Of a DNA stretch of 64,000 nucleotides, positions 290 through 61,359 are shown in pieces. The stretch's first letter is position 1. The number at the start of each line of letters is the position of its first letter. The stretch comes from Gekko japonicus (lineage: Eukaryota). The position numbers were made by a program, and so were the translations under genes. A model generated the notes under the pieces. The model was not told the origin of the DNA, did no database searches, and was given only the letters and a program-made list of their open reading frames with translations. The stretch is taken from the NCBI RefSeq assembly GCF_001447785.1, contig NW_015167537.1, forward strand, positions 572,016 to 636,015, read 5' to 3'.

Positions 290-495
290 CAGGGGTCGTT
301 TTGTAGAAAAAGAGCTGCAGAAGCTCATTAACATGCCTAATAAGCTATTAGCATAATAACTCATTAGCATATGCCACACCCCCTGACATCGCCGGAAGTG
401 ATGTCAGAAGGGGAAGCAAAGGGGGGAGGCATCTTCAAAAGCCTCCCCTTCCCTTCCCCAGCCAGCCTGCCAAGGCGGGCTGGAGGGGGGGGGAG
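290..495 (+). mobile_element. Truncated hAT MITE, motif-rich end only (family with CAGGGGTC termini)
   Basis: Starts CAGGGGTCGTTTTGTAGAAAAAGAG and continues with the same ATTAGCAT/GCCACACCC/CCGGAAGTG block as the TSD-bounded copies at 1539 and 4473; no matching second end found, right boundary approximate. Confidence 0.65.
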
Positions 496-1538
496 CGAAG
501 AGAAAAGGCTGGTACTCTCTTTCCAGTACCCAAACCCCTTCTGTTTGGAACACCAATACTCTTCTTGAGTGTTTGACTGACTTTTAAGGTCTCTGGCAGT
601 TCCTAATCACACCAGACCAGGGATCTCTGTACTCCTCAGAGATAACTTTCCCTGTTTGCCTGGGAATCTTTCTTCTTCTCTCTAGATTTACCCCCTTCCC
701 TTTGGTCTGAATGGGAGTCTTCTCTTCTACTCACTTCCTTGCCAAAGTCTCCCCAGTACTCCTGACTGTGCTCAAACTGCTCTCCGCTACTGCTGAATTC
801 AAACAGTGTTCAGTCAAGGTAGAAATCTGATTCTGTCAGCACTAAACCCGTTTTCTAACACAGCTATTCGTAGACGTTTCAGTGCACATCTCATCACAGT
901 TAAGGTAGGATTCTGACTTCTCTCAGCATCCAGCTCTCAAAAGACTTTTTCTGTTCAGCTGATGCCAACCAGTCAGATTGCCTAGAGCAGCCTGACACTC
1001 AAGGCTCTCTGGCTTTGTGAAGAATTAACTCTTCACAGTCCTTTAGTTGTTTGTACCACACTTCTAAGCCTCTTTAAAAGTGCAGTCCGTCACATAGTGC
1101 TTGTAGCTTTAAGAAACAAATACCCTGGCTAGCACTGCAGAACTGGCTGGGCCAGACTTTTCCCAGGGAAATACTGCCAGGGGGAGGGAAGGAGGAAAAG
1201 CTGAAGACGAGGTCAGATAAAGATAAGTTGGCTGGTGGGTGGAAAGGAGAGAAGGAAGCAGGAAAAAGGGAGATGCTTATGGAGGCTTTCAGGAAATGGA
1301 AAGAGGAAATAGTGGGGGGAGAAGAAAATGAGATGTCCCCTGCAAGTCCTTGGAGGCCCCCCTCTTGTATTGATATATTCTATAACAAAGCCAGATCTAA
1401 TAAAAGCCAAAGAAGAGTGAATGTAAACTTTGCAACAAAATAGCTTTGGAAAAGTTCAGGTGTGCCCCAGGTATTGCAGCAATGCAGAAAGTGCCCCAGG
1501 AGAAGACAGTTATCTCTTTCTGTGTTTATTGCTGGAAG

Positions 1539-1950
1539 CAGGGGTCATTTCCTGCAGGAGCGCACAGGAGCGGAGCTCCGGAAGTAAAGAGCCCAGGGGG
1601 CGGGCACATGCAACAAGCTCAACCCCCTGCTCCCAGCAGCCCTTAGTCAGAGCAAGAGGCAGCCAAGTAAGTTTCAGAGCCCCCCCAGCCCCCCAGTCCA
1701 AAACAGTCCAGTGGCACCTTTAAGACCAAGTTTTATTCAGGTACAAGCTCTCCCTCCTCTGTGAGGACAGATCTGTATGTCCCCCCCCCCCAATAGCTAG
1801 CAATCCAAAACAGTCCAGTGGAGCCTGAGTGGTGGGTGTTGCTTTCTGAGATACTTCCAGCGATGTCAGGGGGTGTGGCACATGCAAATAAGTAATGCTA
1901 ATGAGATGCTAATGAGCTCCTACACCTCTTTTTCTACAAAATGACCTCTG
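1539..1950 (-). mobile_element. Non-autonomous hAT element with 8-bp TSD
   Basis: Termini CAGGGGTCATTT...AAATGACCTCTG; perfect 8-bp TSD GCTGGAAG at 1531-1538 and 1951-1958. Confidence 0.85.
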
Positions 1951-3334
1951 GCTGGAAGTAAGTAAAGCAAACTACTTGGCTACATGCTCTAGAACTCTGC
2001 TGGCACCTCTCAGCCATATGAAGTCTTGGCTGCTAAGACTGGAAGTAGTAACATGGTACTTAAAATGCCTGCAGTCAGAGCTGTCTGGAGGTGCTCATAG
2101 TTCCTAAGGAGGAGAATGTTTTAGTCATCCTGCTACCAGATAAGAGATAACGAAAGTTCTGCTTTCTGCTAAGGATGGTACATTCAAAACAGGATAACTG
2201 CATGTTCTTGATAAGTAAGTACATTTAAATTGAGATAGTCTGACAGGTTCAGATGCTTGAGTAAGTCTGGAGTCACATAGGTGAATTATTATTGCTTTGG
2301 GGGACAGCAGTCTTTGAGTAAGTGAGTCAAAGATCATCCTCTGTGAATCCTGAAGACTGCAACTCCATTAGGAAATGTTGTGGCCAGTATTTTATTGTGT
2401 TTCTGCCCTGAACTTCACATCAGCCAAATGCATTTGGTCAGCTTGCTGTTCAGGGTTATCTGCAGCAAACAGCATGGCCCAGTGCTTTCCTGTCTTGTCC
2501 ACAGGAGTTTTCAGCATCAAGTAGCCTTAGGAAATGTGCTGTATTAATAACAGAATGGTGGACCTATCAGATATAAGCACTGCCCATTTTACCTGAAAGA
2601 AGTTGGACGAAGTAGGGTTTTCTACCTTGTGACCTCTTGTCAGTTTTTGAATTTGGCTGTCAGACAAAGTAATTCAGGGGAAAAAAGATACCACTGGCTT
2701 GTAAATGCAACTAGATTCTTGAATGGCTGCTTTTAATTCCTATGGTGAAAAGAAACATACTTCAATTAGAGTCAGTCATTTGAAATGCTTTTGTAGAAGA
2801 GCTGAGTAAGAATTCAGGAGGTAGGCATTCTAGGTCCAAGAACATGTTTTTAACTTTATTCTCTTTGACTAATGCTTTTTTGGCACTTAGATTTTGTTTG
2901 TTTTCATACCCAGACCTAAAGGAGCTTATACCAGGTGGGGAATAGAGTGGGTCCTAGACGCAGTCTTGATGGATGAAAAGGAAGAAAAAAACAGCCCTTG
3001 TATCTTGTTTGTAATGAATGGACATTCTACTCACTATCAGAGAAACAGGGATTGATCCTGACTTTCTTCCATTTGGATAACAAATTGTATAATCTTGGAA
3101 AGTAAATCAATATTTTTTGCTTATGACAAAGTGGACCTGTTGAAGCCCTTCCAATAAAATGTAATTAGTGAAGTCAATAAGGCAAAGCTGACACACAAGC
3201 TCAGTTTCCATTTCAGTTGTAAGATACGTTTTTCTTCTTACCTCATCAGGGTAGATCTCTGACATTCTCAGCTCAGAAACTAGTTGACTAATGCTTAGTA
3301 TGGAAGACTCAGCTAAGAGGATAAAGTAATTATA

Positions 3335-3637
3335 CTGCAGAATTCACTAACAGGTAGGTAGATGATGATGGCCACAAGCATAAACAGCTTCAAAAGGGGG
3401 TTAGATTCATGGAAGAGAGATCCATGTTCATGGCTACTAGTTAAGGAAAGTGAAGAGAGCCTCCATAGACAGAGACAATAAGCTTCTGAATATCAGTGCC
3501 AAGATACAGCAGGGGAGATCCTTGTCTTCTGTGCCCTGTTTGTTTGGCCCTTCAGGGCAACTGGTTGGCACTATATGAAACAGCATGGTGGACTAGGGGG
3601 ACCAATGATCCAATGCAGCATGCTGTTCTTATGTTTT
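3335..3637 (+). mobile_element. Old CR1 LINE 3' fragment
   Basis: Colinear similarity to the 3' end of the CR1 at 42940-43253, ending TGTTCTTATGTTT. Confidence 0.7.
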
Positions 3638-4472
3638 TAATGATCTAAGAAGTGAGAAACTGTTGAATATAATGCAAGCTAGAGACATGCTATGAGGCAA
3701 AATGACCCTAACTGTTGTGAGAGTAGTGCTTGTGTGGAGGTTAATGTGTAAGGTTAATGTGTGAGGGAGACCTCCTGTTTCAGAGTCGCTGTTCTTACCT
3801 GGGTGGGAGGAGCTCAGCAGTGCTTCAAGTTGGATGACATTGGAGCACACGTGTACAGTACAGGTATAGGAATTCTTCGCATGTTACAAATTTAACCTAA
3901 TGACTGACAATAACTTTCTCTTCAGCTGAAGACTGTACACAACTATTATGTGGAGAAAAGCTTCAGAAATTAGGGGTTGTGTAATTGTGTCTGAAGACAA
4001 TATACACAAGAAGCTTATCTATTGTACTGCCTTAAAAATTATTCCCAGTGTAGACAATGGGAGCTGACCCCTTATAGCTCTCTTGTTTTGGAAAAACCTA
4101 AATACTAATAATTTGCTCAGCAGAATAAGAATACAGATGTATGAATGGTATAGGCAGGCAGAAGTGTGATTTCCATATAAAATGGTTGTTCATCAACCCA
4201 GAGGAACAGTTGCCATGAGATAACTTTCCTTCTCAGTATTCTCATCGCTTTGTTCAAAGGCTGCTGTTGTGTAAAGTTTGAGACAATGTGTATGAAGAAT
4301 TTACTTGTTTGTTATTGTTTTTAATAATATCCTGCCTTTATTCAGTGAAACTCAAGGTGGCATACATTGGATTCCAAGATTTCTCTCTAAGTACTGACTA
4401 AATCCAGGCCAATGAGTTTTGGAATTATTGCCTTTTAACCATTCCCTGGACCAGTGTATGAATGCTAATTAG

Positions 4473-4814
4473 CAGGGGTCATTTCGTAGAAAAAGAGCTA
4501 GGGGAACTCATTAGCATAACTCATTAGCATATACCACACCCCCTGACATCTGGGGCCCGGTGGTGGACCTGCAAGGCCAGCGGGAGTGCGAGGAAGCCCC
4601 GCCAAGGCCCTCCCTGGCCCCAGGCAGACAGGGGTGGGGAGAGGCGGGGAGGAAGCAACTTACCCTACCTCTTCTCCTGCCTCCTCCTGGCTGAATGAGG
4701 GCTGGAAGCAGGGCGGCCAGAAGCAGGGGCTGGGGCTTCGTCATGTGCCCCGCCCCCTGCAACTCACCCGGGGGGAACTGCGTTCCCCCGCGTTCCCCCC
4801 CGAAATGACCTCTG
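4473..4814 (+). mobile_element. Non-autonomous hAT element with 8-bp TSD
   Basis: TIRs CAGGGGTCATTTCG / CGAAATGACCTCTG; TSD CTAATTAG at 4465-4472 and 4815-4822. Confidence 0.88.
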
Positions 4815-7800
4815 CTAATTAGTATATACAGAGCTATTAGTACATACTGAGCTTCATTCAAGTTCAATCTGCTATTATAATTGTTTGCTTTGACAAATTA
4901 ATAACCTATATTGAAAGTCCTAAATATAAATTCTGTATTTTTAAGCTGAAATCTCTGAGCAGTTTACTTCAAAGCGGAGTTATTAATGTCTGTTGAACTG
5001 CCCTGGCATGAACTGCTGTAGCCTTCTTTGTTCACAATGCTGCACTGGTATCTGTGATTGACAGAGGATTTTAGGAACATGGGTTCTTTTGCTGCCAATA
5101 GTAACAAACCAAATGACAAACACACTTTGCATTTGTCACATTAAAATGTTGGAGAGCAATGCTGTTTATGCGTTGCCAGATGCTTTGCAAACATCTGAAA
5201 GCTGAAAGCTGACAGAATGACACTGTCATAAGTACATTATGGGTAGACATTTGGTTTCTGAAGTGCAGAAGAAAGGCATAACAATGGCATATGGTCAGTC
5301 TGGTTTTCTTATCAGCTATGAAAGACTCCAATTTGCATTTCTCTAAAAGGGTGCAGAAATATAAATGAAAGCAGAAAGTCCTTCATATTTCATTTCCTTT
5401 CTTAGTAAATGAGCAGGATACATTTACATTTTTCAGTACTGACAGTTGTCGGCTTGTGAACGAGGATGGTAAAGAGATTATGTTGGAGGTATATCTGCTG
5501 GAATGGCATAGACATGCAACAGTATTGACCTCTCATTTCTTAAATGTGAAGCAGAGATCAGGGGTCCACACAGAAGCCTTTTAGACATTTATTTTGTTGT
5601 TACCAAACGCAGCATTTTAACCATTATACTACATTGTAGGGACATAAATGAACAATGGTGATGGCATTTGTGGCTTAATGACAGAGCATTACAAAAAAAA
5701 AAAAAAAGACTGGTGATGATTGTGAATTGTATTTGTGACAAAAATTCCTGATACTTCCAGTTCTTATATAACATTAGTTGGACATGAGTGGATCAAATCT
5801 AGAAGTGCTTAGGTAATAATTTAGTTTATTCCATTCTTGTAAGTAATCTTCCTGCATCATGCAATAAAAACATAGTCAATTTTAATTATTCTTTGGGTCC
5901 CACTTTTATTATATCTGCAACTAGTGTAGGTTTCTGAGAACAGTACATCCAAACATCACAAGGGAATTATATTATGAAAGCAAAGTGCCATTTAAGCCAG
6001 GGGCAGTATCGAAGTGTGTAAGCAGCCTTCTTAGGCACATATCGTTAAGAATGGCAGGAAGTGCCCCTTTTCAGCTGCAGGAAGGAAAAGACTGATTGCC
6101 ATTGAATTGCCAGGGGCTCTTTATTGCATAAGCATTGGTGTGCTAAAGGTTGGTGGTTGTTGCATACGATACGGGATAGTCTTGTTTCTGGAGAAGTAGC
6201 AGAAACAAGCCTCAGAACTACTGTTGCTTTTCAAGGCTAATACTCTGCTAGGTTTTATTTTAACAATGTCACTTACTGTCCTGATACAAATCTTTCATAT
6301 GTACAAGGTCCCCCCCCCAGTAATTATAGTGTCAGATTTTCTTTGGGGGGACTGAGCACATGATTATAGGAAGACACAGCATGTTTATTAATACTTAGTA
6401 AATTTACCACATGATTCAAAAAAAGAGGTGGCGGTAGAAACCAGAAAGGAAGTCAGGTTTGGGAATCATGTAGCAAAAAGGTTTATTAAACCATTCTTTA
6501 TTTAAAATATTTATATTCTAGTTTTCTCCCAGTCAACTGGACTCACGCAGGTGCTTTATCATGTTAGATGTTATAGTTTCTGCTAAAAGAAATTAGTGAG
6601 CAGATAATGTATAGCAAAATTTAAAGGATTTGAAGTAAAGAAAGGAGTTTTTGTCTTTGTTTCATCGTACACTCCTTTCCCCTACTTGTATGTTTTTATG
6701 TGTACTTATCTTTTGTAAATAAATTTCTAAATTCTGTTTTAATCATTAAAGTTACTGGTCCAGAACCCAGGGTCTTTCTTATTTCAATGCCACAAATTTA
6801 TGCTACCAAAAAGGTTATTCTTCCAATTGGACATATCTAAATTCCTTTTATTTCCTATCACCTCGGCCATTAGACATTGTAGGGGCACGCCGATGTTGTG
6901 ACATACAAGTAGGGGAAAGGGGGGCATAGGTGGCATAGAGGAGGGACAGTTTAGCCTTCTATCTAAGCCAATTGTAGGAAGGATTCAGAGGGATTTGGTC
7001 TTTAGGAGAGTGGTGGGAGAGGCTGAGAAGTAGCGTGGTACCTAGTTACAGATCATATGAGATACTGTGAACTGCATGACTGTGTGACATGAAAAAAAGA
7101 GGCAGATCATGTGGAAAACTGCCAGTCTGGATACATATACCCAGTCTGCATCCCCCTTCTTATGAATCCATAGAAATTTTCATTTGTTTACATAAAACAT
7201 TTCTACCCTACCTTCTCTCCAGCCAAGGTGGTTTGAGCTTACCATTTACTTCGCTTTGATATAATTTTCCTTAATAATATTAAATAGTACATGTGACTTC
7301 ATCCACTTCTTTGCCTGTTTTGGCAAATTACTATGCTTTCATGACTATTGACCTCTATATTATGTTATCATAGTCATATGATTAAAACAATTTTCATCTC
7401 ACCAGCACTAAATCCATATTGTTTATTAATTACCATAAAGATTCTGTATTTCAGATAGGCTTCAGGTTGGTGCTTTTTCGGTTTTTTAATTTAGTTGACA
7501 AAAAATTTTTAGCCGTTGAAAAGATTCACTGTGTTCTGTGTATTTGAGCACACACCATGAAGCCATCCTTTTGGATCATTATTTCCTTCAGATTAGAATA
7601 GTTGAAAATAAACAGTAGTCTTTAGCACCAGGAATTCACATTGTATTTCAGAGTAGCCCTGCTATTGTGTCTGGAATCCAACAATTCCTCACTTCTCTCC
7701 CCCTCTTTCCCCAGCTGTGGATATAACGAACCTAGAAGGAGGGAATTATTGGAAAGTATAAACTCTAGAGGAAACAATCTGCTCAACCAGAGCTGCTTTT

Positions 7801-9043: not shown

Positions 9044-9727
9044 CCGGCATACTCATACATTGCCTGGCATACTCATAGACAACATTTGGAGCACAGAAAG
9101 TGATAGCAGCAACATTAGTGCTTTCTGTTGGTTAGGAACAAAGAATATAAAGGTGAGACATGCAGATAGATATATGTGATAGATGGACAGACAGATATAC
9201 GGCATTAATGGGTATGCCAGTGAACTGAAAAGTGATGGGTAAAAATTACTTTGAATAAAGGGCGGTCAAATACCAGCATAGTTTATATTGGAAGCATGGC
9301 TCAGAGCTAAGGAAGTAGTGTGCTCATAGGAATCTGGCACCTATGCATTTATTATGAGGTATATATGAAGGGGAGGAAAGGTGAAAGGTGAGTGTGTGTA
9401 TTCAAAGACATGGTTTTGAAGATCATTACAGCCTGAAATGTAAGCTATGGCTGAAAGAAATTACTCATGCTGGATAAGCCAACATGGCCACTCACAGCCA
9501 GCCTACTAGAGATCACAAGGAGCCTGCCACTGCTACACTGGAAGTAAGAAGATGGGAGGGGGAAGCTGCAGGACAGAGGGCTAGAAAACTAGATAGGGGT
9601 CTTCCACAGCACCCACTGTTGGTTGTGTGCATGGTACAATCAGGAGCTGCTTGCCTCCCTTGTAATGGCTTGAATCTAGAATGTTATCTTTCATCTGAGT
9701 TTTTTGAAATTTGGGCAGTTTTTGCAA

Positions 9728-10840
9728 GGGGGCTTGCGTGGTTCGATGAGACTGTGGGCGATGCGGTGGAGGGCTATGTAGGATGGACAGGCCACAGCAC
9801 AGAACTCAGACAAAATGTGATCCACTGGAGAAGGAAATGGCAACCCACTCCAGTATCTTTGCCAAGAAAACTCCATGGATAGTAACAAAAGGCTAAAAGA
9901 TAAGACGCCGGAAGATGAGCCCCTCAGGTTGGAAGGTGTCCAATATGCTACTGTGGAAGAGCAGAGGGCAAGTACAAGTAACCCCAGAAAGACTGAAGTG
10001 GCTGGACCAAAGCCAAAAGGATGCTCAGTTGTGGATGTCTCTGTGGATGTATACTGTCACCTTCCTTATTTAATTTATATGCAGAGTACATCATGTGAAA
10101 TACCAGCCTGGATGAATCACAAGCCAGAATTAAGATTGCTGGGAAAAACATCAACAACTTCAGATATGCAGTCAATACCACTCAAATGGCAGAAAGTGAA
10201 GAGGACCTCAAGAGCCTCTTGCTCAGAGTGAAAGAGGAGAGCGCAAAAGTTGGCTTGAAACTCAAAATCAAAAAAACTAAGATCATGGCATCCATCCCCA
10301 TCATTCCTTGGCAAATAGAAGGGGAAGCCGTGGAAGCAGTGGCAGACTTCACGTTCCTGGGATCCCAGATCACTGCAGATGGTGACTGCAGCCATGAAGT
10401 TAAAAGAGGCCTGCTCCTTGGGAGAAAAGCGATGGCTGCGAGAGTTGGCCTATAAGGAAGGCCGAGCGCCGAAGAATAGATTCTTTTGAATTATGGTGCT
10501 GGAGAAGACTCTTGAGAGTTCCTTTGACTGCAAGGAGATCAAATCAGTCAATCCTAAAAGAAATCAACCCAGACTGTTCCCTGGAAGGCCAGATACTGAA
10601 GATGAAGCTCAAATACTTTGGCTACCAAATGGGAAAGGAGCACTCACTGGAGAGGACCCTGATGCTGGGAAAGATTGAAGGGAAAAGAAGAAGGATGAGA
10701 TGGTTAGACAGTGTTATCGATGCAACAAACATGAACTTAAGCAAACTCTGGAGCATGACGGAAGACAGGAGAGCCTGGCATGATATGGTCCATGGGGTCA
10801 CTAAGAGTCGGACTCAACTGTGCAACTGAACAATAACAAG
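9728..10840 (+). mobile_element. BovB (RTE clade) LINE, internally deleted
   Basis: 5' signature CACTGGAGAAGGAAATGGCAACCCACTCCAGTAT; ORF fragments MAESEEDLKSLLLRVKEESAKVGLKLKIKKTKIMAS and LKYFGYQM...LMLGKIEGKRRRMRWLDSV; tail CTGAACAATAACAA. Confidence 0.93.
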
Positions 10841-18208: not shown

Positions 18209-19940
18209 CTTCCTCATGGATCACTGCCTTGACGTGGTGAGGGGGCTTGCATGGTTCGATGAGGCTGTGGGCTATGCCATGGAGGGCCACCCAGGACAGA
18301 CAGGCCACAGCAGAGAACTCAGACCAAGTGTGATCCACTGGAGAAAGAAATGGCAACCCACTCCAGTATCTTTGCCAAGAAAACCCCATGGACAGTAACA
18401 AAAGGCTAAAAGATAAGACGCTGGAAGATGAGCCCCTCAGGTCGGAAGGTGTTCAGTATGCTACTGTGGAAGAGCAGAGGGCAAGTACCCCAGAAAGAGT
18501 GAAGCGGCTGGGCCAAAGCTGAAAGGATGCTCAGACTGTGGCTCAGATCATGACCTACTCATTGAAAAAATCAGACTTAAACTGAAGAAAGCTGAGGAAA
18601 CCACTAGACCATTCAGGTTTGACCTAAATCACATCCCTGATGAATATACAGTGGAGGTGAAGAATCGGTTTAAGGGACTAGATTTGATAGATAGAGTGCC
18701 TGAAGAACTATGGACGGAGGTTCGTGACATTGTACAGGAGGCAGCAATCAGCACCATCCCAAAGAAACAGAAATGCAAAGTGGCTGTCTGGTGAGGTTTT
18801 ACAAATAGCAGAGGAAAGAAGGAAAGTGAAAGGCAAAGGTGAAAAGGAAAGATTTACCCAACTGAATGCAGATTTTCAGAGAACAGCAAGTAGAGATAAG
18901 GAGGCTTTCCTGAATGAACAATGCAAAGTAATAGAGGAAAACAATGGAATGGGAAGGACTAGAGATCTCTTCAAGAAAATTGGAGAAATCAAGGGAACGT
19001 TCTGTGCAAATCTGGCCATGATAAAGGACAAAAATGGTAGAGACCTATCAGAAGCAGAAGAAATTAGGAAAAGATGGCAAAAATACACAGAAGAACTATA
19101 CAAGAAGGACCTCAATATCCTTGACAACCACAACAGTGTAATTAATCACTGTCCTCGAACCAGACATTCTGGAATGCGAAGTCAAATGGGCCTTAGCATT
19201 ACCCAACAACAAAGCTAACGGAGGTGATGGTATCCCAGCAGAGCTATTCAAAGTCTTAAAAGATGATGTTGTTAAAGTGCTGCACTCAATTTGCCAACAA
19301 ATTTGAAAAAAGCAACAGTGGCCGCAGGATTGGAAAAGGTCAGTTTACATTCTAATCCCAAAAGGACAATGCCAAGGAATGTTCAAACTATCGCACAATT
19401 GCACTCATTTCACAGGCTTTCAAGGTCATGCTCAAGACCCTACAAGCTAGGCTTCAGCAGTACGTGGATAGAGAACTGCCAGAAGTACAAGCTGGGTTTC
19501 AAAGAGGTAGAGGAACTAGAGATAAAATTGCCAACATTGGCTGGATTATGGAGAAAGCAAGGGAGTACTAGAAAAACATCTACTTCTGCTTCATTGACTA
19601 CACTAAAGCCTTTGATTCTGTGGATCACAACAAACTATGGCAATTCCTAAAAGAAATCAGGCTTGACTGTTCCCTGGAAGGCCAGATATTGAAGCTGAAG
19701 CTCAAATACTTCGGCCACCAAATGAGAAGGTAGCACTCACTGGAGACGACCCTGATGCTGGGAAAGATTGAAGGTCAAAGAAGGGGACGGCAAAGGATGA
19801 GATGGTTAGACAGCATTATCGATACAACAAACATGAAATTAAGCAAACTTCAGAGCATGACGGAAGACAGGAGGGCCTGGCGTGATGTGGTCCATGGGGT
19901 TGCAAAGAGTCGGACTCAACTGTGCGACTGAACAACAAAA
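18209..19940 (+). mobile_element. BovB (RTE clade) LINE with both ends, internal deletions and 12-bp TSD
   Basis: BovB 5' end, ORF fragment AKWLSGEVLQIAEERRKVKGKGEKERFTQLNADFQR...IRKRWQKYTEELYKKD, tail CTGAACAACAA; TSD AACCTGTTCTCT at 18197-18208 and 19941-19952. Confidence 0.94.
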
Positions 19941-41713: not shown

Positions 41714-43253
41714 TAAGCAGTGGGGTACCGCAGGGATCAGTACTTGGTCTGATGCTTTTTAACTTGTTTATTAATGATTTGGAGTTGAGAGTAAGCAGTG
41801 AAGGGGGCTAAATTTGCAGATGACACAAAGTTGTTCAGGGTGTTGACAACCAGGGAGGATTGTGAGACACTCCAAAGGGATCTGTTGAGGATGGGTCAAG
41901 TTGGCAAATGGGGTTCAATGTGGCCAAGTGCAAAGTGATGCACATTGGAGCAAAAAATCCTAACTATAAATACATGTTGATGGGGTCTGAACTGATAGAG
42001 ACTGACCAAGAGAGAGATCTTGGAGTTGTAGTACACAGTGTGTGACTGCAATTAAAAAGGCCAACACTATGCTGGGGATTATTAGGAAGGGAACTGAAAA
42101 TAAATCAGCCAGTATCATAATGCCCCTGTATATATCGATGGTATGTCCTCATTTGGAGTACTGTGTACAGTTCTGGTCACCACACCTCAAAAAGGATATT
42201 ATAGCATTGGAAAAAGTGCAGAAAAGGGCAACTAGGGCCCCTGCCACACGGCAGGGGAAAAGGCGCTTGAAGGCGCGGCTTTTAAAAGCCGCGCCAACGT
42301 TGACACGGCGCGGCGGGATCTCACGGATCCCCCGGCCGCGCCGCCGTTTCTCCCCGGCGCGATCAAACGCCGGGGAGAAAACACGGCCCTAACCGGGGGC
42401 CGGCTGAACTGCGCATGTCTGAGCATGCGCAGTTCGTCTCCGGCCCGGGGTTGTGCCGGCGCGTCCTTGCGCCGGCGATCAAACGGCCGGGAAGAGGCGC
42501 CGCATCCACTTGAACCACCGAGATAGGTGGTTCAGTTTGAGGCGCGGTTTCCAAGAATAGAGACAGTTCGGGGACGGAATCACGGCGCTTCCCAGATGTT
42601 GTGGTGTGATCGCGCCGGTTTGAACCGCCCCCGAACTGTCCCGCTCCCGGACCAAATAGGTGAGTGTGAACGGGACCTAGAATGATAAAAGGGTTGGAGC
42701 ACTTTCCCTATGAAGAAAGGCTAAAGCACTTGGGGCTCTTTAGCTTGGAGAAACGACGGCTGAGGGGTGACATGATTGAGGTTTATAAGATTATGCATGG
42801 GATAGAGCAGGTCGAGAAAGAAGTACTTTACTCCCTTTCTCACAATATAAGAACTCGTGGGCACTCCATGGAATTGCTGAGCGGTCGGGTTAGAACAGAT
42901 GAAAGGAAGTACTTCTTCACCCAAAGAGTGATTAACACATAGAATTCACTGCCACAGGAGGTGGTGGCAGCTACAAGCATGGACAGCTTCAAGAGGGAAC
43001 TGGATAAACATATGGAGAAGAGGTCCATCAGTGGCTATTAGTCACAAGGTATAGATAGGAACTTCTAGGCTGGGGCAGGTGATGGACTGTATTCTTGGTG
43101 CTTGGGGGAGGCAACAGAGGGAGGGCTCCTAGTGTCCTGGCCCCACTGCTTGACCTCCTGATGGCACCTGGTATTTTTGGCCACTGTGTGACAGAGTGTT
43201 GGACTAGATGGGCCATTGGCCTGATCCAACACTGGCTTCTCTTATGTTCTTAT
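41714..43253 (+). mobile_element. CR1 LINE, 5'-truncated (end of RT domain to 3' UTR), interrupted by a MITE
   Basis: SGVPQGSVLG, KFADDTKL, KANTMLGIIRKG...PHLEYCVQFWSPHLKKDIIALEKVQKRATR and MIKGLEHFPYEERLKHLGLFSLEKRRLRGDMIEVYK; tail TTCTCTTATGTTCTTAT. Confidence 0.95.
42236..42677. mobile_element. GC/CpG-rich MITE, PIF/Harbinger-like, 3-bp TSD TAG
   Basis: Removing it restores CR1 ...GCAACTAGAATGATA (ATRMI); imperfect TIRs GGCCCCTGCCACAC / GTGTGAACGGGACC. Confidence 0.78.
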
Positions 43254-54299: not shown

Positions 54300-55330
54300 A
54301 CTTAAGAGGCTGGCACTGCCTGGCTGGGTAGCAATGGCCACATCACCTCATAGCTGAAGGCATCCAAGATAACATCACCTCATAACTGGAGGCATCCAAG
54401 ATCACACCCAGACTCTTGGTGGTGCTGGTGGGAGTTGGCACCCCAAATCTGTCCCCCCTACCCAGCCACAGAACCTCAGCCAACTCTTTCTCAACTATCC
54501 CGCCACAGCCTCCAGCCCCCGGGCAGATTTTCTGGGGCGGTATCTGGCTGGCTGCCCATCCACAGATATAGCTGGGTGTTATCAGCGTACTGGTAACATC
54601 CCAGCCCGAAAGTCCATGCCAGTTGGTGAGGGGGTGTATGTAAATATTGAACAACATTGAAGAGAGGATTGCCCCCTGAGGAACCCAACATACTAGAGGG
54701 TTCCTAGTTGACACCCTCTCTCCCAGTGCCACCCTCTGTCCCCCACTTTGGAGGAATGAGGTGAGTCACTTCAGGAATACCCCACAAACTCCTATGTTGG
54801 AGAGGCAGTGGGTCAAAAGATCGTGATCAACCATGTCAAACGCTGCTGTAAGTTCAAGCAGCAGCAGCACTGACCCGCCTCGATCCAACTGTTTGCAGAG
54901 ATCGTCAGTGAGGGCGACCAGTGCCATCTCTGTCCCAAGGCTGGGGCAGAAGTCAGACTGGAATGGGTTCAGTGCTAATGTATCTTCCAGGAAATTCTGG
55001 AGCTGTTCCACCACTGCTCTCTCAATTACCTTACCCAGAAATGGAACATTCAAAAATGGGTGGTAATTGGAAGGATCCATAGGATCCAAAGTTGATTTCT
55101 TTAAGAGCGGTACAGCCACCGCCTCTTTTAATCCCTCTGGATAGCTCCTTGAATCCAGGGACAGGTTGATAACGTCTACCGGGGCAGACCACCTCAGGGG
55201 CCAACCGCCCCCACTTCTCTGTCTTTGGCATGCCACTGCAGCGGTGGGGGAGGCTTTTCATCCCTTTCCTCTGGCTCCATGTGAGCTTCCTAGGGCACAT
55301 AGATTCAGAAAAAGGGAGCGAAAGCCTCTC
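54300..55330 (-). mobile_element. L2 LINE ORF2 (RT) fragment, decayed
   Basis: LKEAVAVPLLKKSTLDPMDPSNYHPFLNVPFLGKVIERAV...TEMALVALTDD...AAFDMVDH; VPQGAILS; QYADNTQLY. Confidence 0.9.
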
Positions 55331-56774: not shown

Positions 56775-58499
56775 ATGTCGGATAGGGAAGTCGCTGACAA
56801 TTTCTTCTCAGAAGACGAAACTGGGGAAGACTTCCTTTCAGCTCAGCGCGCCTCTGTTACAGCCGCAGCTATGTCCTCTGCTCCTGCTGCCGTGGCGAGC
56901 TCTTCCGCACCAAAAGACACAGGCGCCAAAAAGCGTCCCCACTCTCCCAGCATGTTGCGGGCGCCATTTTGAATCAAGCGGCTAAACTCGCTCACCCCGA
57001 AGAAGGGGTAGGAGGCTGCGGGGCAGCTTTCGCTGCTACCATAAGCCAAGGCTCAAACCCTGAGGAAGGACTGGCGGTCCCAAGTTTCCAGGAACCGGCG
57101 GATCGCGGCAATGGCGCTCCTTCTGCCGGTCTACTTGTGAGTAACCCCGGTCAGGGCTGTAATCCTCTGTTAATGCCAGATGTAATGTGGTTCTTTAGAG
57201 AAATGGTGAGAGAAAAGTTAGCCACCCTGCGCAGGGACTCCCAGGGGAATAGTTTCCAAGAGCCCCTCCCTACCCAGCCCAGCCACTGCCCCCAAGGGGA
57301 GTTTGGTCACGACTGCCCAGAGGAAGACAGACCCCGCTGGCCAACAAAGGCAGCTAGAAAGAGCCACCATTGCTCCTTGAGTGCGGATCCCCAGTGGGAC
57401 CTTTCTCAGATGGAGGAGAGTGAAATAGGAGGACCGGAGAAAGGTGAGTTCCTCTCTGATGAGGAGGAAGAAGAAGAAGTGGAAGTTCCTGACCGTTCCA
57501 TGCACTTTTTTAAACCTGAGGACTATATGTACTTGCTCAAAAAGACCATGTCCACCTTAGAGCTTATCCCTAGACTGAAAGCAGATGACACAGCCAATGA
57601 TGAATCTGCAGATGGGTTGAGACCCAGGGGGAGTAAAGATTATTTTCCTAGAACCCCAGGGTTTGAAAAAGTTTTCCCTTTTCCAGAATTCCTAGAGAAG
57701 CAATTGGTTAAGGAATGGACTAAGCCCATGGCAAACAAGCACTGTCCTCCTAATATTAAAAAATTGTATGCATTGCCTAATTTTACAGAAGCTCTTGCAG
57801 GTCCCCCCAGTGGATGCTCCGATAACCGCACTCCAGACCTCAGGCCTGCTGTCTGAAGAGGGAGAACGTATGGTGCATGATATTCTGGATAAGAAGGCTG
57901 AATTTGCCTTACATAAGGCCCACGAAGCCACAGCTATGGCCATCAGAACGAAAGCCACAGCCACGGTTGTAGCTCAGGCCTCCATAGCCTGGTCCAAAAA
58001 GATGACTCAACTTATCCCGGACTCTAATAAACGCTTGGCTGAAGGGGCGAACAGGCTCCTTCAAGCTTCTTTTTCTGCTGATGCCACACTTGATGCTATG
58101 ATATTCTCTTCCAGAGCTTTGGCTTCCACGGTGGCAGCTAGGAGAACCTTGTGGCTATGTGCCTTGCAAGCAGACCTTCATGCCAAAGGAATCGTTACGG
58201 CATACCCCTTCCAGGGCAACCGCCTCTTTGGTGATTCCTTAGATAAAATCCTCATGGAGACAAAGGATAAAAAGAAAGCCTTGCCACGCTTGCTGGGCAG
58301 AGGAGACAGACGAGGACTTGGCAACTTTTCCTTTCAAGGTTCATGGTCTTCCTACAGATTTGACAGAGATGGGAGACGTCCCTTCTTGGGGACCTCAAGA
58401 CAGAATTTCAGACACAATCCTTTCCACAACAGACCAGGCAGCTCCTTCCCTCCAAGAGACAACAAGTCCGGGAAAGGAAACAAGTCCTCCACCACATGA
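56775..58499 (+). pseudogene. DIRS gag (LAP2alpha-like domain), frameshifted across three ORFs
   Basis: ORFs 56775-56972, 56969-57856, 57768-58499; LQVPPVDAPITAL...DKKAEFAL...ARRTLWL...PFQGNRLFGDSLD typical of vertebrate DIRS ORF1. Confidence 0.8.
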
Positions 58500-60375
58500 C
58501 TACGAATCAGTGCCCGTGGGAGGACATCTGCTCATATTTCATCGGACTTGGGTAGAGTCCAACGCAGACGCCTGGTCCAGGGAAATCGCGTCAAATGGAT
58601 ACTCCATCGAATTTCTGAGCAAACCCCCAGACCGCTACATCCTCTCTCCACTGATAAAAGACGAAGGCAAGCTACAAAGAACTCTGGATGCTGTACATCA
58701 TCTGGCCAGCATTCTAGCCATTGAGCCTGTTCCATTCGATCAAAGGGGACAGGGTATCTATTCCATCTTTTTCACCGTTCCCAAAAGGAACGGCAGCTGG
58801 AGAGCCATATTGAACTTTAAATTCCTAAACAAATTCGTACGCTTACGCCGTTTTTGCATGGAAACACTTCGCTCGATAGCAGAGGCTCTTCAACTGGGTG
58901 AATTCCTGATGTCTGTCGATCTACAGGAGGCGTACCTACACATACCCATCTTTGCCGGGCACAGATGTTTCCTGCGGTTCTGTGTTCAAGGACAGCACTG
59001 GCAGTTCCAGGCCCTTCCGTTCGGTCTCTCTACTGCACCCAGGGTCTTTTCCAAGATGTTAATCCATCCAGTTGTCCTGCTGAGGGAACAAGGTGTCCAT
59101 GTCCACCCATATTTGGACGACCTCGTGATCCACTCCGCCTCTCACCTCAAGTTGATTCAGGATACAGAGGCCACTGTACGTTGCCTTCAGATGCATGGTT
59201 TCCTTGTGGATGTCCAGAAGAGCTGCCTTGTCCCGTCTCAAACACTAGAACACCTAGGAGTGATCTTGGATACATCGCAAAACAAGATGCTTCCACCCAA
59301 ACCCAAGGCAAAGACAATATGCAACGTTTGCAAACAGATCTTCAGGAGCAGGCGTTCCTCACTCATGACCCTGGCCAGACTGATGGGTCTCTTAGTCTCT
59401 TGCATTGATACGGTTCTATGGGCTCGTCTCCACTCAAGGCCTTTGCAACAACTTCTGCGACCTTTTCAACACAAGATCTTGTGTCGGGAAGACATCCCCA
59501 TAGGCCTTCCTGCTGCCGTAAGTTACAGGCGCCTGGTGGACCAAAATGTCAAACCTACTAAGAGGCCGCGCATACTTCGTGACACACTGGGAGCAGATAG
59601 TCACAGACGCCAGTCTGGTGGGCTGGGGTGCGGTCCACCTCAATGTTCCCTCTCAGGGCCTGTGGTCCACTCATGAGAACAAACTACTGATCAACGTTCT
59701 GGAGCTGAGGGCTGTCAGGCTGGCTCTACTTCAATTCCATCACCAAGTCTCAGGCCTCCACGTGTTGATCCGGATGGACAACATAGCCACCAAGTCCTAT
59801 ATCAACAACCAGGGCGGCTCCAAATCAACCCGCCTACACAAGGAAGCGACGCTCCTCCTCATGTGGGCAGAACACAACCTCACCTCTATCAAGGCAGAAT
59901 ACATCAGGGGCTCTCTGAATACCCAGGCCGACTGGCTCAGCCGCTGCCAATTACAGGAGGTGGAGTGGTCTCTGCGGAGAGACCTCTTTCTGGTGATAGT
60001 GGAGAACTTCGGTCTGCCAGATGTGGACCTACTTGCCTCCCTGCTCAACTTCCAGGTTCCCCGGTACTTCACTCAGTTTTATCACTGAGAGGCAGAAGCG
60101 ATGGCTGCTCTGACATCCCCCTGGCCACCAGGTCTGATGTTCGCATTTCCTCCCACTCCAAACATTCCGAGATTCCTCAGGAAACTCAAGGAGCAGAAGG
60201 TGGAGGCCATTCTGGTGGCTCCCTATTGGCCATGAAGACCATGGTTCTCAGAGATCCAATGCCTGTCAATCCGTTCTTATCTCTCTCTTCCGACAGCCCC
60301 CGACATGCTACTACAAGGCCCAGTCTGGCATCTGGATCTGGGCTGGCTTCATCTGACCGCATGGCGATTGAGCGG
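58318..60375 (+). pseudogene. DIRS pol: reverse transcriptase, RNase H, Dam-like methyltransferase domain; frameshift and stops
   Basis: DLQEAYLHIP, LPFGLSTAPRVF, YLDD; TDASLVGWGA, INVLELRAV, DNIAT, NTQADWLSR; PDVDLLAS, FAFPP, VAPYWP; frameshift near 59520, TGA at 60086-60088. Confidence 0.9.
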
Positions 60376-61359
60376 CACGGGCTCCTCAAGCTCGACTACC
60401 CTGAGAAAGTAACCAACATGATCATGGCGGCTAGACGACATTCTACATGTCGCATCTACAATACCACCTGGAAAACCTTTGTGCGGTGGGCCAGAAGGAA
60501 GTTGGTGGACCCCTTGAAGCCTCGCCTCAGGAATATACTCACTTTCCTACAAGACGGTCACGACTCAGGACTTAAGTCATCTACCTTGCAGAGACAGGTG
60601 ATGGCTTTGTCTACGGTTCTTCCCCTCTTCAAAGGTTGGAGTTTATCTAGACACCCACACGTCAAACGCTTTCTGAAGGGAGCGTCGTCTCAGGACCCGC
60701 CTGTCGTCCATAGGTTTCCTACTTGGAGACTAAACATGGTTCTCAACACATTGACCAAGCCCCCTTTTGAACCAATTACAGATATTTCTTTGAAGTGGCT
60801 TCGAATGAAAACCTTGTTCTTAGTGGCGGTAACGACTGCTCGGCGGGTGTCTGAACTGGGAGCTCTGTCAGCTAGTCCACGCTTTTGCATCTTCCATAAA
60901 GATAAAGTCGTTCTGATTCCTGACCCCACCTTTCAGCCTAAGGTCAATACCAGGTTTCACAGATCTCAGGAGATCTGTCTCCCCTCCTTCTGCCTAAACC
61001 CGACTCGCACATAGGAGCATATATGGCATTTGCTGGATGTCCGCCACACCCTGAAAGTGTTCCTACATCGAACCATGTCCTTTCGAAAATCTGCATCTCT
61101 ATTCGTTTCAATTTCTCCCCCTAATAAGGGCTTCAAGATGTCCAGTTCCACGATCAGCTCTACTCTCAAACTGTGCATCATTGAGGCCTACAGGGCACAG
61201 GAGTTGGTTCCTCCGACGGGCATCACCACATACTCCATCCATAGTGCGGCCACATGGTCTTCTGTCGCTACCTTCACAAGCCATTACAAGATTGATGTTT
61301 TTGATTCAGCTGATGCAGCCTTCGGCAGACGAGTCCTTCAGCAAGTCCTGACAGACTAG
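60361..61359 (+). pseudogene. DIRS tyrosine recombinase, disrupted
   Basis: STCRIYNTTWKTF, KTLFLVAVTTARRVSEL, AATWSSVATFTSHY; in-frame TAG at 61012-61014; HxxR motif reads YSIH. Confidence 0.88.

Follow-up and report, generated by a model that had tools for sequence, protein, structure and literature searches.

Background

A short non-coding insert in the genome of Gekko japonicus raises the question why a transposable element should be tiled by a chain of hairpins, and whether these hairpins serve an RNA, serve the DNA, or serve nothing. The insert occupies positions 42236..42677 (+ strand) of the window, i.e. of the whole stretch of 64,000 nucleotides that was analysed. An earlier note on this DNA had described it as a CpG-rich PIF/Harbinger MITE, young or protected from methylation, and had suggested that it might carry a structured RNA or single-stranded DNA module or palindromic binding sites for the Harbinger Myb-like protein, or act as a portable CpG island. 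Here we describe the element, its relatives in the genome and the evolution of its stems, and weigh the explanations for them.

Results

The insert, its ends and its surroundings

The insert is a non-autonomous PIF/Harbinger MITE of 442 bp, flanked on both sides, as the earlier note had it, by the target-site duplication TAG (42233..42235 and 42678..42680, + strand). The left TIR, GGCCCCTGCCACAC (42236..42249, + strand), is identical to the left end of the Harbinger elements L096 and L097, and the right TIR (42664..42677) reads GGTCCCGTTCACAC on the minus strand, the repeat being 14 bp long with 10 matches. The GGCCCC..CACAC ends claimed before are indeed terminal repeats, but the right end had to be corrected to GTGTGAACGGGACC. 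Duplications of 4 bp (CTAG) or 2 bp (TA) were ruled out, as TAG alone leaves symmetric ends and other copies have duplications of 3 bp.

The element lies in a decayed 3' fragment of a LINE (left part 41790..42232, right part 42681..43060, both on the + strand), which from its translation, rather than from a library match, we take to be CR1; a Pfam search of 42679-42942 in its right part gave no match. Junctions without the insert were found at the site, both in reads and in joined contigs, and come from other copies of the host LINE. Sitting in a dead LINE, the window copy is probably inert. It is young, as had been supposed, and belongs to the youngest subfamily of the MITE, in which 12 copies differ by 1.3% from their majority sequence.

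CpG islands are recognized by a GC content above 50%, a ratio of observed to expected CpG above 0.6 and a length above 200 bp. The MITE has this composition, with 65% GC, 55 CpG and a ratio of 1.17 over 442 bp, against 0.24 for the window, which confirms the reported CpG richness on a CpG-poor background.

The window contains other LINE fragments at 9478-10829, 18691-19218 and 54343-55257, which we presume to be RTE-like and L2/CR1-like; 54766-55254 has a sub-cutoff match to RVT_1. On the + strand, overlapping long and CpG-rich ORFs at 56798-61014 match LAP2alpha-like proteins, RVT_1 and, weakly, RNase H, and the last of them has no Pfam match; by its appearance, we take this element to be a DIRS-type retrotransposon.

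The MITE family and its autonomous relatives

The exact left-TIR pattern has 5,436 matches in the genome (5 for the control) and the exact right-TIR pattern 3,556 (79 for the control), the latter occurring also in sister families. Forty copies scored out of 4,810 candidates were all 93-100% identical, and 37 of them were full length. The window element is a young member of a family of non-coding Harbinger MITEs with thousands of copies. For comparative analysis we used 188 distinct full-length copies, each with both TIRs, two internal motifs and a length of ~395-480 bp, a filter under which deleted copies are under-counted; among the last 120 loci, 8 were discarded as duplicate or incomplete. 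A matching 3-bp target-site duplication is present in 120 of the 188 copies and absent from the other 68, and the leading sequences are TTA (17) and TAA (13), i.e. TWA-biased. The 120 sites reveal a palindromic target preference, AC-TWA-GT (C in 72% at -4, G in 74% at +1), which is symmetric and reaches ~8 bp out on either side, ~19 bp in total.

At least 151 matches to PF13359 were found in the genome. L092 and L095 have, between related TIRs, genes for a DDE transposase and for a Myb/SANT protein, with PF13359 and PF13837 above cutoff, and L097 a PF13359 match with a sub-cutoff match to PF13837; related TIRs are shared by all of L091-L095. The right 205 bp of the MITE are collinear with the right ends of L092 and L095 (scores of 115 and 127 against shuffle maxima of 33 and 43). 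At the left end, collinearity with L096 and L097 extends over the first 110-150 bp of the MITE (71 against 43 for L096), and L092 and L095 give only weak alignments there (49 against 41 and 51 against 51). Since both ends are collinear with two-gene elements of this clan, the MITE is an internal-deletion derivative of the clan, a PIF/Harbinger MITE built from two ends of a two-gene Harbinger. Its membership in PIF/Harbinger, proposed in the earlier note, is upheld by this collinearity, the TIRs, the 3-bp duplication and the palindromic target preference, the last two being PIF/Harbinger features according to PMC2836001 and PMC4561436. The search for an autonomous partner with the same TIRs succeeded in part: the left TIR is identical in L096 and L097, but no exact partner was found among the autonomous relatives compared, and right ends of L096/L097-type elements were not found in the stretches examined, which contain assembly gaps. 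The three complete autonomous copies (L092, L093 and L095) have non-matching target-site duplications. The MITE family may already bear a name in Repbase or Dfam.

Over their main matches, three autonomous elements (L093, L094 and L095; G000:C594, C7894 and C13968) are 99.4-99.9% identical. Each is interrupted by an assembly gap, and together they probably constitute a very young Harbinger family. Myb-like frames lie either on the same strand as the transposase and downstream of it (L091:6114-6476, L096, L097:2444-2821) or tail-to-tail on the opposite strand (L092:6169-7245, L095:8096-8851), and some autonomous elements may carry two Myb-like genes.

Anatomy of the hairpin chain

All eight hairpins listed in the earlier note are present at the positions given there, with perfect outer arms of 8, 12, 9, 13, 12, 8, 9 and 12 bp (H1 to H8). 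H1 (42238..42257) is an 8-bp stem over the TIR and is found in younger subfamilies only. H2 (42272..42295) is a perfect 24-bp palindrome with one covarying pair; its 5-bp seed GCGGC..GCCGC is found in relatives, where it surrounds a non-pairing spacer. H3 (42306..42343) comprises a 9-bp outer stem with three covarying pairs and an inner stem GGATC/GATCC, which did not vary in 40 of 40 copies and surrounds the subterminal motif GATCTCAC (42317..42324, + strand), a candidate Myb/transposase site whose place at element position 82 is constant across the clan. The loop of H4 (42347..42380; 13-bp stem, one covarying pair) holds the motif GATCAAAC (42361-42368, position 126). H5 (42406..42435; 12-bp stem) probably marks the junction between the halves derived from the left and the right end. 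It contains at 42420 the 12-mer TGAGCATGCGCA, with one mismatch to the NRF1 consensus, an NRF1-like string in agreement with the resemblance to NRF1 half-sites noted before. H6 (42455..42476; 8-bp stem, 6-nt loop) is weak in the oldest subfamilies, and is followed by a second GATCAAAC (42477..42484, + strand), ~200 bp from the right end and at the same place in autonomous right ends; the string CGATCAAACG occurs at 42360 and at 42476. H7 (42511..42534; 9-bp stem, three covarying pairs) has a counterpart of other sequence, about equally far from the right end, in some sister MITEs and in autonomous elements. H8 (42562..42640; 12-bp stem, four covarying pairs) encloses a clan-wide conserved block, CTTCCCAGATGT followed by minus-strand GATCACAC (42588..42611, + strand), the latter 67 bp from the right end; 9-12 of its 12 pairs are intact within the family, compared with 2-9 of 12 in 19 outside relatives.

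The MITE folds with -263.4 kcal/mol as RNA and -153.3 as DNA, with a z-score of -11.9 in each case, and none of 100 dinucleotide shuffles folded as well; this comparison, which the earlier note had proposed, bears out its stems. Perfect inverted repeats of at least 7 bp number 14 in the insert, against 2.6 in shuffles. No 10-bp A/T periodicity of the nucleosome-like kind was seen in the element, the top periods being 14.5, 14.75 and 12.

Clan-wide motifs and lineage-specific stems

The motif GATC(A/C/T)(C/G/A)AC recurs in the clan at ~81 and ~126 from the left end and at ~67 and ~200 from the right end, and these positions are kept in sister MITEs and autonomous ends, as are the CTTCCCAGATGT block and GCGCATGC. 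These conserved motifs are likely protein-binding sites. The hairpin chain, in contrast, is specific to this MITE lineage: with 12 shuffles each, z-scores range from -3.8 to -12.8 for single copies of the hairpin family (n=9), from +3.0 to -3.8 for 22 copies of sister MITEs and from +2.3 to -2.5 for autonomous ends (n=6). The sister TIR has 20,076 matches, a count which includes both ends and some right ends of the hairpin family. The sister families, which lack the chain, are no less abundant, so movement does not require the stems.

The sister MITE families (310-680 bp; L035, L040, L053, L129, L131, L164, L327, L331, L346 and others) have a common end skeleton, in which motif spacing is near-fixed despite fast sequence turnover. 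One sister MITE, L032, is split inside the conserved GATC motif by an insertion of ~460 bp with inverted ends.

Stems are constrained between subfamilies

A total of 145 of the 188 copies fall into 13 groups (3-31 copies each), with majority sequences of 432-445 bp that are 67-98% identical; the comparison of subfamilies uses these observed sequences only. All 13 fold with z-scores of -4 to -17 on either strand and keep 45-57 CpG. Folding is stronger in the younger groups (rho 0.85 over 13 groups, a value obtained on related groups of which the small old ones may retain decay). Covariation of the stems, another check that had been proposed, is present: 14 of 85 pairs occur in two Watson-Crick states among the 13 majority sequences, in H2, H3, H4, H6, H7 and H8, while H1, H5 and the inner stem of H3 yielded none in the same set. 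In 40 real copies 89.1% of the cells pair, compared with 85.4% after shuffling and 37-44% after sliding, and 140 cells in 24 pairs carry two-sided changes, against 58.5 in shuffled columns; further pair types in these copies were not above shuffles (70/500).

Over 12 edges connecting the subfamilies, stems differ at 129 of 2033 positions (0.063) and unpaired sites at 515 of 3257 (0.158), stems differing 1.2-2.6 times less than unpaired sites between the 13 subfamilies. The deficit is seen also at clan-variable positions (0.069 in stems, 0.176 in unpaired sites), and when stems were defined on five subfamilies in turn, they differed on the other edges at 0.69-0.83 of the unpaired rate. Two-sided stem changes number 22 on the 12 edges, against 5.8 expected, and 14 of them are fully compensated, compared with 78 one-sided breaks or gains; the p-values of these comparisons are too small because the subfamilies are related and mosaic. 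The differences between subfamilies are clustered (415 against 323 +/- 13), and an excess of A-T and C-G swaps among them was not significant (p 0.12). Several copies (L015, L016, L046 and others) are mosaics of blocks from different subfamilies, which suggests recombination or template switching between copies.

Settled copies decay freely

Decay after insertion was followed in 117 settled copies from six groups. Among CpG sites 769 of 11,886 positions differ, among other sites 475 of 39,505, i.e. CpG decays 5.4-fold faster, the signature of germline methylation. This is indirect evidence against the protection from methylation suggested in the earlier note and against a portable CpG island. 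CpG-site differences are about as frequent in stems as in unpaired regions (0.062 and 0.067), and the rates of novel singleton changes agree as well (46/11,989, or 0.0038, in stems and 97/24,567, or 0.0039, in unpaired sites), an equality that is reached once bases common to other subfamilies are set aside; raw non-CpG differences are equal in one stem definition and lower in stems when the eight original hairpins are used. Settled copies show 639 single stem breaks and only 9 compensated doubles, 8 of which are double transitions, and transitions make up 76% of their differences, compared with 41% between subfamilies. Because stems decay like unpaired sites after insertion, the constraint operates in the copied lineage and not in resting copies.

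Tests for RNA and possible traces of template switching

Mismatch states in the stems comprise 13 distinct G-T and 15 distinct A-C states, and 8 of the 14 covarying pairs are transversion swaps, which cannot pass through G-U. In the Rfam search that had been recommended, none of 16 matches reached the gathering score (best 31.5 against 79 bits). Three RNA runs with 100-nt reads cover the family at low depth, in both directions and with no shared ends; in run X21 the depth per direction is ~2-100 inside the element and 450-5,300 in its LINE flanks. Given the lack of strand preference, the equal folding of both strands, the negative Rfam search and the lack of discrete ends in these 100-nt reads, the data do not support the structured RNA module proposed for the element; it may hold a single-stranded DNA module.

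The 6-nt loop of H6 is found in forms that are exact reverse complements of each other: AAGGAC in 26 copies and GTCCTT in 24, and likewise AAGGAT in 24 and ATCCTT in 1, these counts being based on the 89 of 188 copies matched by the loop pattern; L126 and L154 have ATCCTT as well. A private inversion of the H7 loop, also seen by loop pattern, is present in L274. Template switching, of which loop inversion is a published signature (PMC5453318, PMC8794818), is suggested by these three exact inversions. Clusters of differences can be read as local reverse-complement copies 11.5 times per side, against 5.9 +/- 1.5 (22 of 124 clusters), a modestly positive result that existing stems bias. An automated search for private clusters of at least three singleton changes found one and missed the inversion in L274.

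Discussion

The hairpins likely act in DNA and likely aid movement; a protected CpG island or an RNA with a function is the less likely role. As to their origin and maintenance, we see an even chance that the stems were built by template switching and persist through selection which, acting among the source copies that transpose, favours them as DNA features helpful to mobilisation. Template switching at replication would extend seeds beside conserved motifs into stems, the clan transposase and Myb protein would move the MITE in trans via the TIRs and the GATC-type repeats, and selection on mobility among the few transposing source copies would keep the stems. The latter would be features of double-stranded DNA, cruciform-prone dyads adjoining binding motifs, and could contribute to end synapsis, nucleosome exclusion or chromatin access. 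The mobility of mPing is tuned by internal sequence and GC content, according to the text seen of PMC9921582. Counting against selection on the stems are the lack of covariation in H1, H5 and the inner stem of H3, and the 78 one-sided changes compared with 14 compensated ones; biased repair during copying, with no selection, would give much the same pattern.

Such a purely mutational origin is the strongest competitor, though clearly the less probable of the two. Error-prone gap repair reportedly corrects quasi-palindromes, and if template switching in transposition-linked gap repair overwrote one arm with the other, functionless stems would lengthen as by a ratchet in this GC-rich lineage. 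The three exact loop inversions, the clustering of differences between subfamilies and the stronger folding of the younger ones would all be expected, and sister families thrive without stems. However, these sister families, which use the same machinery, gained no stems, settled copies show no stem repair, and inversions (2 per 644 source differences, 1 per 1,244 settled) are not clearly commoner in the source. Apparent DNA structures may be maintained without selection, as the available part of PMC5453318 has it.

Somewhat less probable still, we tentatively consider that the hairpins frame each transposase/Myb motif in a cruciform or single-stranded state, so that structure and not sequence would favour source copies. 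It is doubtful that the stems are dyad sites, whose symmetry improves binding by a dimeric Harbinger Myb-like protein or by NRF1-type host factors. H1, H3, H4 and H8 do enclose TIR-like motifs, H5 and the inner stem of H3 are nearly invariant, Xenopus Harbinger-N12A_XT shows an enrichment of NRF motifs (PMC12676858) and Harbinger ends are bound by the Myb protein (PMC2836001, PMC9392472), as far as the accessible text of these reports goes. Yet the eight stems have no common sequence or spacer (0 to 55 nt), base pairs swap freely, and the stems are lacking in relatives, sister families included, whose TIRs and motif spacing are the same, which weighs against the Myb sites that the earlier note proposed; the clan-wide GATC(A/C/T)(C/G/A)AC repeat, whose recurrence that note had pointed out, is a better candidate site for this protein.

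Selection for a structured RNA, such as a small-RNA precursor or scaffold, seems quite improbable: it would fit the z-score of -11.9, the 140 covarying cells against 58.5 and the presence of some family reads in the RNA runs, but there is no G-U strand bias, the minus strand folds equally, the best Rfam score is 31.5 against 79 bits, depth in X21 is low with no shared read starts or ends, and a cut-and-paste element would draw no obvious copying advantage from it. A portable CpG island that resists methylation and is retained by the host or for its benefit is the least credible reading despite the GC content of 65%, the ratio of 1.17 over 442 bp and the 45-57 CpG of all 13 majority sequences, given the CpG decay of settled copies and the location of the window copy in a dead LINE.

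The MITE and its stems can be set beside known systems, in each case as far as the text seen of the cited reports extends. The rice mPing/Tourist-like MITEs resemble the gecko family in being shorter than 500 bp and non-coding, with 14-15-bp TIRs and a 3-bp duplication preferring TTA/TAA (PMC2836001, PMC4561436, PMC9921582), and also in their extended target preference, two-gene autonomous partners and the importance of internal sequence, but no covarying hairpin chain is reported for them in those parts, the word "hairpin" being absent from the portion of PMC9921582 available. The duplications of the Gekko japonicus MITE are more varied. Zebrafish Harbinger3N_DR/Harbinger3_DR is likewise a vertebrate Harbinger with ends bound by a Myb-like protein (PMC2836001, PMC9392472); it has a long target preference (15 bp, compared with ~19 bp here) and, compared by description only, no described hairpin chain. 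Xenopus Harbinger-N12A_XT (PMC12676858), another vertebrate Harbinger MITE, has 3,521 copies, palindromic internal repeats and enriched NRF motifs; it differs in its length of 342 bp and in having no covariation analysis in the text seen, and, again compared by description, may share the layout. Harbinger-Snek of sea kraits (PMC8437027) is a two-gene Harbinger from squamates that has numerous short non-autonomous derivatives, and for which, by description only, no structure is reported in the part consulted. Short-range template-switch mutation gives perfected stems, compensatory swaps, inverted loops and clustered differences (PMC5453318, PMC8794818), but the reports, in the parts at hand, concern single loci and RNA genes and not a transposon lineage that gained a whole chain of stems which its sisters lack. 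The type of element and the mutation process are already known, and the lineage-specific covarying hairpin chain, of which we found no description for a MITE in the literature as far as its text was available, would be the new part.

The family bears on the question of how MITEs amplify through cut-and-paste movement and what role their internal sequence has. It is a natural experiment, in which stems arose in one lineage but not in its sisters, which have the same ends, and in which source and settled copies can be compared. That strong folding and real covariation can arise with no sign of RNA calls for caution in structure screens of repeat-rich genomes. If the stems do act as a structural cis-element, this would be a case of DNA structure compensating like RNA inside a MITE, and would offer a direct approach to the way in which MITEs come to out-replicate their partners.
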